A stretch of DNA of 64,000 nucleotides from a virus (IMGVR_UViG_3300038345_000144); one strand, 5' to 3'; counted from the stretch's first letter, positions 49,295 to 60,514 are shown. Made by a program: numbers and translations. Notes: generated by a model not told the origin, from the sequence alone.

Positions 49295-49378
49295 TGGCAG
49301 TTTTTAAGGCGTAATGATAGTTGTGAATATCTCGATTTCGTACTCAAAATATTCGACACAGAACTGCCAAACTATGTC
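49295..49378 (-). ncRNA. UUU/AAA pseudoknot RNA with insertion
   Basis: GACATAG-TTT-GGCAGTT-CTGTGTC...AAA-AACTGCC-A. Confidence 0.55.
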
Positions 49379-49381
49379 TAA

Positions 49382-49457
49382 TGGTCGAGGTGACAGGACT
49401 CGAACCTGCGTCTTTATGCTCCCAAAGCATACCGTCTACCAACTGGCTTACACCTCG
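49382..49457 (-). tRNA. tRNA-Pro(TGG)
   Basis: Cloverleaf. Confidence 0.92.
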
Positions 49458-49689
49458 ATATAACGGTTGGTTAACTACGCCTTTTCGGTATTAAGGAGAC
49501 CGTTACACTTCCTCTTGTTGCTTTATAATCCTTTATTTAACAAGGCGATACCCACCTTCAACTCGTTCTCGCACGGTCATACGCCGAAGTTTTGCAGTTA
49601 CCCAGGTATTCGGAATTTACCTTCTTTATCCCTTGTTAATCGTTTTCGCAGGGTCTATGACTCGCCACTAAAGTCAGCACAAGGGGGTC

Positions 49690-49765
49690 TGGGGCTTTCG
49701 AAGGGAGTCGAACCCTTGACCTAATGATTACTAATCATTCGTTCTGCCAACTGAACTACGAAAGC
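49690..49765 (-). tRNA. tRNA-Thr(AGT)
   Basis: Loop TT-AGT-AA. Confidence 0.88.
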
Positions 49766-49920
49766 ATTTTTGGTGTATAGAGTGGCAACTCTTCCTGAAT
49801 ACACCAGTCAGGGATAAATTTTGCTTTGTTCATTAAGTAGGTACAAAAGGCATCCTGAACAAAGGCTTATAGGCTTATCTAACCCCGTTTTCATCAGGTC
49901 AAGGAGGCTGTCCCGATTAT

Positions 49921-49994
49921 TGGAGTCGCATAAGGGACTTGAACCCTCACCGTCTGCTTGGAAGGCAGTGATGCTACCGTTACACCAATGCGAC
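49921..49994 (-). tRNA. tRNA-Gly(TCC)
   Basis: Cloverleaf, U73. Confidence 0.9.
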
Positions 49995-50148
49995 ATTTAT
50001 AACATAATGGTTATCAGCCTTGCTGTTATGCGGTTATGTTATCCACATAGGTAAAAGTCTTATATTTACCATTCAGACGGTGCATATCGTCCAGACCGTC
50101 AAGCCCGCTATCTATTTTGATAAAAGGGTTGATAGGACACACCCTTAT

Positions 50149-50225
50149 TGGAGCAAGTAAAGGGATTTGAACCCTCACCTTCTGCTTGGCAAGCAGATAT
50201 GCTAACCAGTTAACACTATACCTGC
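50149..50225 (-). tRNA. tRNA-Gly(GCC)
   Basis: Cloverleaf. Confidence 0.9.
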
Positions 50226-50342
50226 ATTTAAGTCTGACATAGTTTTAAGTCGCTATGCCCCGCTACATATTTGGTGAAACCACGGTCAATTACCCCCGCA
50301 GTAGGCACATTTGTTCCCAGCCTTTTGATTTATATAAATCAA

Positions 50343-50418
50343 TGGTTGGAAGTAGGAGAGTCGAACTCCTCGCAACTGCTTTATAAGAACAGCCCGTTAA
50401 CCGCTACGGTAACTTCCA
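50343..50418 (-). tRNA. tRNA-Ile(TAT)
   Basis: Loop CT-TAT-AA. Confidence 0.82.
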
Positions 50419-50681
50419 GTATAGGTGGGCTTGTGAGAACCACTCACTAACGGCTTTGCCCTCTCGCCGCCTGATTTTAGGTGAATTAGGATAATCAGAA
50501 ACCTTGAGATGAAAATGACTGTGACTTGTCTTCCTCGACCTTTCATCAGAGCCGTATTAGATTTATTCTGCCCTTAAACCTAACTAAAAGGAACTACCCG
50601 TATCGCACGATAGCGTCGCCTTTCCTTATTACGGGGAAAGGTAGACCCGTCAAGTAAGTCACAGGGTACTTGAAAACCCTT

Positions 50682-50868
50682 TGGTGGGGAGTGTGGGACT
50701 CGAACCCCTTAATATCCCGAACACTTTATCCCATTCCTATTCTTTTACTTTTCCAAGTTAATTACTCTTGTACTTTCTAAAACAATAGTTCAAGGAGTGC
50801 CTAATCGTCATTAGGACGGGCAACTATGCTACGAACATAGTCTGCTTTTCCTTCTTGCATACCACCCC
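50682..50868 (-). ncRNA. giant tRNA-like RNA with a ~110-nt variable region
   Basis: D arm, hairpin ACTATG-TTCGTAG-CATAGT, T loop TTCGAGT, ACCA end. Confidence 0.6.
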
Positions 50869-50999
50869 ATATTAAAATGTAAAGGTACAATAAGTGCCAT
50901 TTGCTTTCTCGCTCGCAAGCGGTTTGATGCTACTGCCGATGGCTCGACGGGAAGGAGGTTTTCATCTTCCGTAGTCTCCGAAAAGGCTACCCGCTATTG

Positions 51000-51035
51000 T
51001 GGTGATAGGTTTTTGAAGAGAACCTACCAAACTCT
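51000..51035 (-). ncRNA. mini-pseudoknot RNA ending in CCA
   Basis: AGAG-TTTG-GTAGGTT-CTCT-TCAAA-AACCTAT-CACCA. Confidence 0.6.
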
Positions 51036-51135
51036 GCCTGCATATTCGCAGTGCGATTATACTACCTTCCTGACTATTCAGGAATATTCATTCGCCACCT
51101 AATGTGGTCATAGCAGTGTCAATTCACTGCGGTAT

Positions 51136-51211
51136 TGGTGACGGGTACGGGATTTGAACCCGCAATCTCCTCCTTGAAGGGGAGGCGTGTTAGCCGTTCC
51201 ACTAACCCGCC
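51136..51211 (-). tRNA. tRNA-Glu(TTC), C33
   Basis: Loop CC-TTC-AA. Confidence 0.88.
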
Positions 51212-51418
51212 ATAGTGTGAACCCAAAATGAAATCAATTACTTCAGAAAGATAACGGTTCACTTGGGGCGGCTCACCGCCCGTTTGCTTTCTTATTTTTC
51301 CCAGGAGGGCAAGCAAATGCCCCAATTGCCCCTTCCATTTATATGCCGTCGAATGGGGCGAGACGGAAACAAGCACCCTTTAATTTGTAGACCGCACAGG
51401 GGTTCGAAACTGCGGTTT

Positions 51419-51786
51419 TGGTGGAGATGAGGGGAGTTGAACCCCTGTCCAAAACATTTGATTATGAGTTTCTACGAGTGTAGTTGGTATTTTGATTAGT
51501 CCAATTCATATTTCGTCTGCCAACAAACAATATGTCCTGTATCTCGGTAAGTAAGCCTTGTTTGTGTCGAGAACCCTCAAACTCCGCTAATCACTTTGCG
51601 ATAAGTGAATGAAAACCTATGAGGTACAAACTATCAAAGCCATAGAACAGTGATAGTCGGCAGTCACGCTACTGCAAGTTCGTAATCAGCGATTACTTTT
51701 CTGCTTAATCTGTTTTAGGTGAAGTATAAGCATCACACCACTCGCTTGTCATAATTGAGATGCCCTGTCGAAACCAGTACATCCCC
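51419..51786 (-). ncRNA. ssrA: tmRNA
   Basis: 5' GGGGATGTACTGGTTTCGAC; 3' T arm and ATCTCCACCA with G3:U70; tag ORF ADYELAVA*. Confidence 0.93.
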
Positions 51787-51791
51787 ATATA

Positions 51792-51980
51792 TCAAGAACA
51801 CTTTGCTTCAAGCCAGTCAGGTACATCAATACCGTTCTGAACAAGTGCGTCCTTTATTTCCTGCGGGCTATGAGAGAGTGTCATCAGTACCAGATGGGAC
51901 TGAAATGCCTTCTCAAGAGCATCTTCCATACCTGAAAGTTCTTTCCTGCACTCTGCCACGGCTTCTCTTGTCATTTCCAT
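51792..51980 (-). CDS. hypothetical protein
   Basis: GGAGG RBS, TTGACA-18-TATAAT upstream. Confidence 0.55.
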   Translation of the reverse strand: MEMTREAVAECRKELSGMEDALEKAFQSHLVLMTLSHSPQEIKDALVQNGIDVPDWLEAKCS

Positions 51981-59426: not shown

Positions 59427-59497
59427 CGGGGTAATTTTTGAGAAGAATTACCAAACTCCTTACCGAGCCAAGTTTTGAATAGACCTGACGAAACTAT
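59427..59497 (-). ncRNA. two tandem mini-pseudoknots
   Basis: ATAG-TTT-CGTCAGGT-CTAT..AAA-ACTTGGC and AGGAG-TTT-GGTAATT-CTTCT..AAA-AATTACC. Confidence 0.55.
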
Positions 59498-59510
59498 ATT
59501 AAACTGTAAA

Positions 59511-59637
59511 CAAGACACATTTTTTTGCGTTCCTGCTCTACCAACTGAGCTACCTCCCCATTGGCGGGAAGGGTTGGACTCGAACCAACGACCAGGGGTT
59601 TGACAGACCAAGCGATAAGATTGCTGTGTGTGTCTCA
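59511..59637 (-). ncRNA. ACAGCAA-stem RNA 3 carrying a permuted tRNA-Asp-like domain (YrlA-like)
   Basis: Stem encloses GTC anticodon hairpin, T arm, acceptor stem closed by GCCAAT, D arm. Confidence 0.8.
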
Positions 59638-59645
59638 AACAGCAT

Positions 59646-59679
59646 TGGTGATAAGTTTTTGCAGAACCTAACAAACTGT
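59646..59679 (-). ncRNA. mini-pseudoknot RNA ending in CCA
   Basis: CAG-TTTG-TTAGGTT-CTG-CAAA-AACTTA-TCACCA. Confidence 0.6.
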
Positions 59680-59691
59680 TTTTTTAATTAA

Positions 59692-59761
59692 CAAGACCCG
59701 TTTGTTTCAGAGGTTTTTGATTATCAGTCAAATTCTAAAATAAGATTGCTGTATGGGTCTT
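59692..59761 (-). ncRNA. ACAGCAA-stem RNA 4 with a GAT anticodon stem-loop
   Basis: AAGACCC-ATACAGCAA..TTTGA-CTGATAA-TCAAA..GGGTCTTG. Confidence 0.75.
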
Positions 59762-59766
59762 AAATT

Positions 59767-59876
59767 TGGTTACTGATAACGAGACACGAAATTTTTATGG
59801 AGTCGAACCATATAAGTTTGAGTTGCAGTCAAATTTTTTACCGATAAGTAGATTGCTGTGTATGTCTCAATCAGTC
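59767..59876 (-). ncRNA. ACAGCAA-stem RNA 5 with a GCA anticodon stem-loop, T arm and ACCA end
   Basis: TTTGA-CTGCAAC-TCAAA; TATGG-TTCGACT-CCATA. Confidence 0.75.
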
Positions 59877-59912
59877 TGGTGAATAGTTTTTGGATAGAAC
59901 TAATCAAACTAT
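59877..59912 (-). ncRNA. mini-pseudoknot RNA ending in CCA
   Basis: ATAG-TTTG-ATTAGTT-CTAT-CCAAA-AACTATT-CACCA. Confidence 0.6.
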
Positions 59913-59920
59913 ATAAATTA

Positions 59921-59995
59921 CGAGACACAGTTTTTTAAGGGTGTTTCATTAAAAGTAAAATCCTGAAAAATCAAAGAGTTGCTGTGTGTGTCTCA
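59921..59995 (-). ncRNA. ACAGCAA-stem RNA 6 with a TTT anticodon stem-loop
   Basis: TTTTA-CTTTTAA-TGAAA inside the GAGACAC/GTGTCTC stem. Confidence 0.7.
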
Positions 59996-60000
59996 ATTTG

Positions 60001-60076
60001 TGGAGCCACCGACAGGACTTGAACCTGCAACCTACTGCTTACAAGGCAGTCGCACTACCAATTGTGCTACGGGGGC
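60001..60076 (-). tRNA. tRNA-Thr(TGT)
   Basis: Cloverleaf. Confidence 0.92.
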
Positions 60077-60158
60077 ATACAAAGGGTAACTAATGACGGA
60101 TAATTACCCAACCCGCCATCTTTCGATGGAGTAGTTATATGAACTCTACTAAACATAG

Positions 60159-60235
60159 TGGGGTGACATCCGAGACTTGAACTCGAACTAACAGGGTCAC
60201 AGCCTATCGTGCTAACCAATTACACCAATGCCACC
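60159..60235 (-). tRNA. tRNA-His(GTG) with encoded G-1
   Basis: 8-bp acceptor stem, G-1:C73. Confidence 0.9.
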
Positions 60236-60249
60236 ATATAAAAGATTAA

Positions 60250-60263
60250 GTTGTCAAAGAACA
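60250..60263 (-). promoter_or_regulatory. boxA-like antitermination element
   Basis: TGTTCTTTGACAAC; weaker copy GAACTTTGACAA at 60615-60626. Confidence 0.6.
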
Positions 60264-60354
60264 ATTCTTAATAGTAGTATCAATCTTTTAATACCTATTT
60301 CTTATAACTTCACACAGGATTTACTTAAATCTCCTGACTTGCTATTAAGAAGAA

Positions 60355-60431
60355 TGGTCAGAGTGGTGAGACTTGAACTCACAACCTCCTGTCTCCAAAG
60401 CAGGCAGTCTACCAGTTGACCTTACACCCTG
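60355..60431 (-). tRNA. tRNA-Pro(TGG), A37
   Basis: Loop TT-TGG-AG. Confidence 0.85.
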
Positions 60432-60514
60432 ATACGGTTCCCCATCTTTGTTTCTCTTCAGAACGGGGAAACTGAAGGTTTTTCACAGGAACTCTTTTTA
60501 TAAGAGTGTGTGAC

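Follow-up and report, generated by a model that had tools for sequence, protein, structure and literature searches.

Small pseudoknots can be cut by ribonuclease P (RNase P) in vitro. A 33-nucleotide (nt) H-type pseudoknot followed by a GCCAC tail serves as a substrate for RNase P RNA of the type A, type B and archaeal kinds (Kosek et al., PMC12710915), and this model pseudoknot is cut in loop 1, with RCCA (where R is a purine) being required and U being preferred at position -1 (PMC12710915). Two natural candidate substrates have been named, the messenger RNA (mRNA) leader of gene 32 of phages T2 and T4, in which a pseudoknot is followed by ACCA, and the turnip yellow mosaic virus (TYMV) structure, which RNase P is known to cut in vitro and which has U at -1; the same work left open whether pseudoknots are RNase P targets in vivo (PMC12710915). 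In this study, small pseudoknots were analyzed in a 64,000-nt stretch of viral DNA (IMGVR_UViG_3300038345_000144), hereafter the window, in which an initial annotation had placed ten mini-pseudoknots, several of them ending in CCA. It is highly likely that the canonical sites among them belong to a real pseudoknot family that covaries in both helices. Three canonical members and five diverged relatives were retained, all on the minus strand only, whereas the sites at 60127 and 51375 were not.

On the transcript strand, the canonical element consists of the 5' strand of stem 1 (S1; NNAG), UUU, the 5' strand of stem 2 (S2; GGUAGGU-like), U, the 3' strand of S1 (S1'; CUNN), a loop ending in AAAA, the 3' strand of S2 (S2'; ACCUAUC-like) and ACCA. 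This is an H-type pseudoknot with a 3-nt loop 1 across the deep groove of a 7-bp S2 and an A-rich loop 3 of 5-7 nt across the shallow groove of a 4-5-bp S1, the inner pairs of which are A-U and G-C. Homologs were sought by scanning IMG/VR and metagenome sets with exact patterns and by running a covariance model, R1, on the fetched loci (492 kb; individual loci carry L numbers below). R1 was built with S2 only, S1 being left out. The first consensus pattern gave mostly chance matches and uncovered L016; the consensus pattern led to the phage IMGVR_UViG_3300028914_000060 (175.6 kb), the five copies of which share S2 and the tail and differ in S1 sequences that are nevertheless complementary. Scans with further patterns added copies from a 467-kb phage that has terminal repeats, from three other IMG/VR records, 59 metagenome stretches and four bacterial or metagenome-assembled contigs, and a scan with a tail-free pattern gave no further true members, only look-alikes in AT-rich coding sequence.

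R1 returned 138 matches in the fetched loci, 99 of them distinct and from 72 sources, always on the strand of the transfer RNA (tRNA) genes. The elements are 35-41 nt long with two helices only, apart from six canonical members that carry a hairpin of about 45 nt inserted in loop 3. Loop 1 is UUU in all 99 distinct members, preceded directly by AG in 95. In tRNA numbering, U occupies -1 in 99/99 and G occupies +1 in 94/99; pair 1:72 is G-C in 86, G.U in eight and A-U in four, and pair 2:71 is G.U in 52, U.U in 28 and A-U in 17. The tail is ACCA in 86 and GCCA in seven, giving RCCA in 93/99, and loop 2 is U in 71/96 and AU in 17/96. Sequence is conserved at nearly all positions except for outer S1 and the 5' part of loop 3. 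No Rfam 15 family matched any element at the gathering threshold or with lax thresholds (E up to 10, lax filters).

Both helices are supported by changes that preserve pairing, as the initial annotation had noted when it described stems of differing sequence with pairing kept. Since S1 lay outside the model, its covariation is an independent test. The innermost S1 pairs are near constant (G-C in 96/96 and A-U in 92/96); pair 3 is formed in 92/96 by G-C, A-U, C-G, U-A and G.U, and pair 4 in 78/96. When the 5' strands of S1 were permuted among members, the corresponding values were 58.9 for pair 3 and 46.3 for pair 4, and none of 5000 permutations reached those observed. S2 is 95.2% paired, a value not reached in any of 500 shuffles, while slid registers gave 17-46%. 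Because the alignment was fitted to S2, only double changes carry weight here: five of the seven pairs are changed on both sides, for example in GGCAGGU/ACCUGUC, GGUGAGU/ACUCAUC and GUCAGAU/AUCUGUC. A loose pseudoknot scan of the 64 kb yields about 15 chance matches on each strand, so that topology carries no weight by itself, whereas a relaxed signature (AG-UUU, CU, S1 and S2 fully paired, A-run) gave six matches, all on the minus strand within the tRNA array, against 0.37 expected over both strands (200 dinucleotide shuffles). The triple helix of U.A-U type known from telomerase, which had also been suggested, is not supported, S2 not being made of U and A tracts.

The window lies inside a 406,557-bp contig, located by protein search, of a giant gut or rumen phage and contains dense small open reading frames in the style of phages. 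Its 43-63 kb region holds 46 tRNA genes together with a transfer-messenger RNA (tmRNA) gene, all on the minus strand, and the elements are therefore to be read on the reverse complement of the window. Pseudoknot topology is symmetric under reverse complementation, so that a mirror image appears on the plus strand; the G.U pairs (2:71 in 52/99 and 5:68 in 40/99) exist only on the tRNA strand and so fix the strand of the transcript. Perfect TTGACA-17-TATAAT promoters at 60931, 54670 and 52042, all on the minus strand, divide the array into a few long transcription units.

The window copies are collected in Table 1. In the window, R1 gave three matches of 47-57 bits and a fourth of 18.6 bits, with nothing comparable in the remaining ~50 kb. 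The three canonical copies carry the CACCA endings that had been ascribed to them, and these are the sole true CACCA tails among the ten sites. Identical copies of the 51000 element are present in three metagenome contigs. Orthologs were compared in three moderately diverged syntenic contigs (L078, L086 and L092): the counterpart of the 59646 element in L078 has S1 ACAG/CUGU, and the place syntenic with the 59877 element is occupied in all three by other stems (AAAG/CUU and GUUAGGC/ACCUAUC). The six matches to the relaxed signature are the five diverged copies and the 51000 element; the other two canonical copies were missed owing to one S2 mismatch each.

Table 1. Mini-pseudoknots in the window, with strand, evidence, paired strands (5'/3') and surroundings; coordinates count from the first nucleotide of the window.
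Element	Coordinates	Strand	Evidence	S1	S2	Loops, tail and surroundings
Canonical	51000..51036	-	R1 56.7 bits, E 1.9e-11	AGAG (51035-51032)/CUCU (51020-51017)	GGUAGGU (51028-51022)/ACCUAUC (51010-51004)	Loop 1 UUU (51031-51029); loop 2 U (51021); loop 3 51016-51011; tail ACCA (51003-51000); ends CACCA
Canonical	59646..59680	-	R1 47.1 bits	CAG/CUG	GUUAGGU/ACUUAUC, U.U at 2:71	Ends CACCA; between two ACAGCAA (Y-like) RNAs
Canonical	59877..59913	-	R1 49.8 bits	AUAG/CUAU	GAUUAGU/ACUAUUC	Ends CACCA; between two ACAGCAA RNAs
Diverged copy	59426..59460	-	R1 18.6 bits, E 0.04; relaxed signature	GGAG/CUUC	GGUAAUU/AAUUACC	Tail CCGA, no RCCA; tRNA-Asn 8 nt downstream
Diverged copy, in tandem with 59426	59467..59497	-	Relaxed signature	AUAG/CUAU	GUCAGGU/ACUUGGC	Loop 1 UUUC; no RCCA
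H-type pseudoknot, separate subtype	60440..60475	-	Relaxed signature	UUCAG/CUGAA	CCCCGU/AUGGGG	Loop 3 AGAAACAAAG; no RCCA; between tRNA-Tyr and tRNA-Pro
Variant, 63-nt loop 3 insert	57993..58081	-	Relaxed signature	AAAG/CUUU	UGCUCGU/ACGAGCA	No RCCA; between tRNA-Asp and tRNA-Met
Variant, 55-nt loop 3 insert	49296..49375	-	Relaxed signature	AUAG/CUGU	GGCAGUU/AACUGCC	CCA overlaps S2'; directly after tRNA-Pro

Three of the five diverged sites (60440, 59467 and 59426) are backed by structure-preserving changes in orthologs. At 60440, S2 is wholly compensated in L078, L086 and L092 (CCCCGU/AUGGGG versus GCUUAC/GUAAGC) and S1 is compensated as well (UUCAG/CUGAA versus UACAG/CUGUA); with both stems changed and still complementary, this is a genuine pseudoknot and one of another subtype. 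The 59467 element has S2 GUAAG/CUUGC in L078, where one pair is deleted on both strands and a G.U pair has become A-U, and orthologs of the 59426 element in the same set of contigs have S1 GAAG/CUUC, again a change from G.U to A-U. For the two long-insert variants no informative homolog was found among the fetched loci: the 49296 element recurs there only in the near-identical L019, and the 57993 element, which has its insert in the same place as the hairpin-bearing canonical members, is absent from the syntenic spot in L092, where tRNA-Asp and tRNA-Met lie 1 nt apart. The CCA ending assigned to the site at 49295 lies partly within S2 and is therefore not a free tail. The site at 60127 was rejected as a pseudoknot, as its S1 is broken in L078, L086 and L092 (UAUG/CAUA to AAAG/CGUA) and its supposed CCA ending is CUA there, and the site at 51375 was rejected as well, its S2 having just 4 bp with neither the family signature nor homologs.

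Other conserved RNA features adjoin these sites. After tRNA-His, a simple hairpin (AGUAG...CUACU; 60125-60158, minus strand) that is not a pseudoknot is kept in L078, L086 and L092, as is the stretch that follows it (60084-60124, minus strand; UCGAAAGAUGGCGGGUUGGG...). A further hairpin (60480-60514, minus strand; CACAC-ACUCUU-AUAAA-AAGAGU-..GUGUG-like), located between tRNA-Tyr, which it directly follows, and the 60440 pseudoknot, shows no change at all in four relatives in which the stems of that pseudoknot changed.

The elements are packed into the arrays in the manner of the other array units. All 544 tRNA calls in the fetched loci are on the element strand, none being opposite, and CCA is encoded by 337 of 350 distinct array tRNAs. 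In several cases there is no spacer (0 nt) between S1 and the CCA of the tRNA or tRNA-like RNA before it, and the next unit begins 0-2 nt past the CCA of the element. Most neighbours are recurring non-tRNA or tRNA-framed RNAs rather than canonical tRNAs, and all six neighbours of the three canonical window copies are non-tRNA RNAs; the 51000 element, for example, comes after a helix-enclosed non-tRNA RNA at 51040-51135. In 18 of 112 contexts an RNA bearing an ACAGCAA motif (Y-like) lies upstream at a distance of up to 120 nt, and in nine one lies downstream within 60 nt; the interleaving of such RNAs with the pseudoknots at 59.4-60.0 kb had been described correctly. One setting differs: in a Peptostreptococcaceae prophage (L028 7011-7045, plus strand; also L060 and L062) a canonical pseudoknot is placed just 3' of the major tail protein gene, with a paralog of that gene on its other side and no tRNA nearby. 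In these three loci, six bases of the 3' strand of the element (AUCACC) are complementary to the ribosome-binding region located downstream (UAGGUGAU). Among the scored candidates, bacterial genomes contained no further copy outside prophage or phage-like contigs.

Several observations concern the neighbouring RNAs themselves. The ACAGCAA RNAs of the window (59692-59760, minus strand; also 59617-59640, 59849-59870 and 59979-59999) have a closing helix GAGACAC...GUGUCUC that covaries, followed by A(C/U)ACAGCAAUCU. They match the Dictyostelium Class I RNA model of Rfam weakly (RF01414; 18.9 bits versus a gathering threshold of 41.5) because a shared UACAGCAAU motif adjoins the terminal stem. In other phages, too, pseudoknots are flanked by RNAs of this kind (GGCAC..ACAGCAA..GUGCC). 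One ACAGCAA unit (59532-59596, minus strand) has a closed-acceptor, permuted tRNA-like domain; it matches the tRNA-like module of bacterial YrlA (RF02553) at model positions 24-84 with 38.9 bits, below the gathering threshold of 69. At L022 (886-925), L063, L106, L119 and L085, a module resembling the 5' half of a tRNA ('GUGGUGAAACGGCAAACACCGCC'; acceptor 5' strand, D arm and half of the anticodon stem) ends directly at S1 of a pseudoknot, and at other loci T-arm and acceptor 3' strands lacking CCA ('CCUACUUCA') end at a pseudoknot. These half-like modules may be split or unfinished tRNA-framed RNAs.

The geometry of the element resembles the end of a tRNA. Stacking of S2 (7 bp) on S1 (4-5 bp) gives an 11-12-bp coaxial stack followed by RCCA, i.e. 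the 7+5 arrangement of the acceptor and T stems, in which the nicked strand (the 5' strand of S1, S2' and RCCA) corresponds to tRNA positions 61-76 and the continuous strand (the 5' strand of S2 and S1') to positions 1-7 and 49-53. The element is therefore probably a permuted acceptor/T minihelix without a T loop that mimics a tRNA end, and the proposal of an acceptor-stem mimic or processing signal in the initial annotation appears to fit this geometry together with the near-constant RCCA, U-1 and G+1. The invariant U-1, G1:C72, R73 and CCA are the positions that bacterial RNase P reads. Given these positions and the cleavage of pseudoknots in vitro, we tentatively propose, at somewhat less than an even chance, that the elements serve as punctuation in polycistronic RNA arrays, acting through RNase P and the trimming of 3' ends.

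Under this proposal, the elements would be transcribed within the long array of tRNAs and small RNAs, and the host enzymes that mature tRNA ends would handle every copy as they do a tRNA. With the 3' RCCA as its guide, RNase P would cleave loop 1 at the boundary between UUU and G+1; in the 51000 element the predicted site lies between 51029 (U-1) and 51028 (G+1). The cut would dissolve S1 and leave the upstream RNA with a trailer of 7-8 nt to be removed by exonucleases, while the CCA end would be set by 3' trimming or by RNase P cleavage of the next unit. In this way, 3' ends could be freed for RNAs that RNase P does not recognise, such as the ACAGCAA/Y-like RNAs, the tRNA-framed RNAs and the major tail mRNA of one prophage.

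A number of points weigh against this role. The most serious is the sequence conservation of S2, of both loops and of the inner S1 pairs in phages that differ widely, which exceeds what RNase P recognition should need and lends weight to the main alternative below. The copies in L056 lie between two ordinary tRNAs with 0-1-nt spacers, where the flanking tRNAs mean that no extra processing signal is needed. The element has no T loop, which RNase P normally contacts; U(-1) could pair with A73; the folding energies of single sequences are unremarkable (z from -2.3 to +0.3); and the five diverged window copies have no free RCCA. Furthermore, pseudoknot substrates are cut in vitro far less well than hairpin substrates (PMC12710915).

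The main alternative, which we regard as rather unlikely, is that the intact pseudoknot is released and acts in trans as a free-standing mini-RNA mimicking the acceptor arm of tRNA-Ser, being a decoy, competitor or substrate of, for example, seryl-tRNA synthetase (SerRS), the CCA-adding enzyme, EF-Tu or an anti-phage enzyme of the host directed at tRNA 3' ends. It would account for the near-complete sequence conservation of the element and for its gene-like packing between tRNAs with 0-1-nt spacers, and it draws on a specific resemblance: five of 27 phage tRNA-Ser have acceptor stems identical to the first 6 bp of S2, compared with none of the 323 other tRNAs, and the identity extends to the variant forms GGCAGG, GGUAAG and GGUGAG. 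This match suggests that a factor recognises acceptor stems of the serine type or that the element descends from a tRNA-Ser. However, 87% of members have A as the discriminator, as opposed to G73 in tRNA-Ser, and the long variable arm, which is the main serine identity determinant in bacteria, is absent from the element (PMC9976931). In addition, the prophage copy sits within an mRNA, an intact pseudoknot could not persist if RNase P cuts loop 1, and a partner encoded by the phage was not found: the complete 175-kb phage with five copies has neither a CCA-adding enzyme nor DUF2828 nor RtcB, so that any partner would be a host factor or an unknown one. The tRNA-Ser(UGA/CGA) genes themselves (57298-57385, minus strand, in the window, and in L087, L092, L112 and L122) have the acceptors GGUAGG, GGCAGG, GGUAAG and GGUGAG, all with G2.U71, which are the S2 variants.

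A barrier to 3'-to-5' or 5'-to-3' exonucleases, stabilising the adjacent RNA or mRNA end with CCA being incidental, is less probable still. The position of the elements at the 3' side of structured RNAs and of the major tail protein mRNA is what such a barrier would show, the combination of an A-rich loop 3 with a U-rich loop 1 is typical of compact triple-stabilised pseudoknots, and the diverged window copies retain the fold and not RCCA. The barrier nevertheless leaves the conservation of RCCA (93/99), U-1 and G+1 unexplained, and the helices are short and AU-rich, with a mismatch at 2:71 in 28/99 and a predicted S2 stability of only -2.8 to -8.8 kcal/mol.

An aptamer of the preQ1-I kind that senses a small molecule within the array transcript is very improbable. 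The size and topology are alike (~34 nt, P1, a 3-nt loop 1, P2 and an A-rich loop 3), loop and junction positions are very strongly conserved, and the stretch AAAAAC(C/U)UA resembles the preQ1-I tail, a resemblance that serves as a lead only. Against this, loop 2 is a single U or AU without the ligand-pairing C, P2 has 7 bp, there is neither a downstream expression platform nor a queuosine gene, and the constant RCCA would be unexplained; membership of RF00522 was rejected on the lack of a model match (E up to 10, lax filters), the missing C and the tRNA-array context. Finally, a repeat acting as DNA, for example a promoter with TTGGTA and TATCAC 17-18 bp apart or a mobile or recombination site, is scarcely credible: the two conserved blocks are mostly separated by a variable stretch of 17-18 bp in the manner of -35 and -10 boxes, but the spacers range from 15 to 65, the '-10' lacks its final T, the promoter scan did not call it while finding perfect promoters elsewhere in the phage, and the covariation between the sequence upstream of the '-35' and the 'spacer', and between both blocks, is unexplained at the DNA level, which excludes a promoter.

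RNase P punctuation by a tRNA-end mimic thus remains the reading that we favour. The abundance and conservation of a natural 36-nt pseudoknot with the determinants known in vitro (U-1, G+1, RCCA and the 12-bp stack) make the question of in vivo RNase P targeting testable. The family also shows how giant phages arrange arrays in which tRNAs are mixed with many unknown small RNAs, adds a very small, well defined fold to the short list of tRNA mimics and offers a possible compact processing tag for synthetic RNA operons. There is a possibility, albeit a doubtful one, that these are the first natural dedicated pseudoknot substrates of RNase P, giving 'traceless' punctuation for non-tRNA RNAs and some mRNAs, and/or the smallest tRNA mimic known, an acceptor arm of the serine type that would be charged, CCA-repaired or a decoy for a host factor attacking tRNA 3' ends.

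Other genes and RNAs of the window were recorded alongside. In the middle of the array (52851-53987, minus strand) lies a gene whose product belongs to the sigma-70 family (regions 2 and 4) and has only four close homologs among 5.8 billion clustered proteins, which are encoded in near-identical DNA only (L019-L021); a protein-guided search of IMG/VR with this gene found nothing, and comparison of the array with INPHARED phages by megablast gave two tRNA-like matches of ~50 nt and nothing else. Cas3 (HD, helicase and C-terminal domain) and a Cse1-like protein are encoded at 11733-14177 and 17152-18732 (both minus strand), which indicates a type I-E-like CRISPR-Cas module in the phage, and a radical SAM protein gene at 18855-20768 (minus strand) is split by an intein with a LAGLIDADG homing endonuclease domain. 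Long tRNA-framed RNAs, with T-arm and acceptor ends and 100-300 nt inserted, are found at 50685-50875, 55040-55370 and 56209-56330 (all minus strand); they were overlooked by ARAGORN, and the last is a weak truncated match to the tmRNA model.

Among known systems, the tRNA-like structure (TLS) of TYMV (TLS-Val; RF00233) shares with the phage element an acceptor-like helix formed by an H-type pseudoknot and an ACCA end. The TLS, however, has ~85 nt with equivalents of the anticodon, D and T arms and is valylated at the 3' end of an RNA virus genome, whereas the phage element has the acceptor/T stack only and occurs in many copies inside the tRNA arrays of DNA phages. The likeness to TYMV pointed out earlier therefore extends to an H-type acceptor helix with NCCA and no further, there being no other arms and no match of the RF00233 model on any element (its sole match was a true tRNA-Glu, at 23.5 bits). 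The preQ1-I aptamer (RF00522) is of nearly equal size and has the same H-type topology, 3-nt loop 1 and A-rich loop 3, but differs in its ligand-pairing C in loop 2 and in its regulated gene, the phage element having a 7-bp P2 and a constant RCCA instead.

Placement is shared with the t-elements of plant mitochondria (PMC1920247) and MALAT1 mascRNA, non-tRNA structures that use tRNA end processing to make the ends of neighbouring RNAs; the phage element likewise abuts its neighbours by 0-2 nt. Those structures are hairpins or cloverleaves with a T arm and T loop, whereas the phage element has pseudoknot loops instead and is half the size. The RF00005 and RF01684 models gave no match on the elements, and ARAGORN called none of them as a tRNA, no cloverleaf or anticodon arm being present. 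A further likeness is to the model RNase P pseudoknot (a biotin aptamer with GCCAC) and to the gene 32 leader, which are also small H-type pseudoknots (~33 nt) with a single-stranded loop 1 that adjoins the helix bearing a 3' RCCA; RNase P pseudoknot substrates are cut in loop 1, and the element shares their layout, with UUU before S2 in all 99 members. The biotin-aptamer substrate is artificial and the gene 32 leader is a single mRNA leader with an established role in gp32 autoregulation, whereas the phage family is natural, multi-copy, placed among tRNAs and conserved across many phages. Literature searches turned up no description of the family, only in vitro and plant-virus precedents. Viral mimicry of tRNA ends and tRNA-like processing signals are already known; it is the minimal architecture and the setting that are new.

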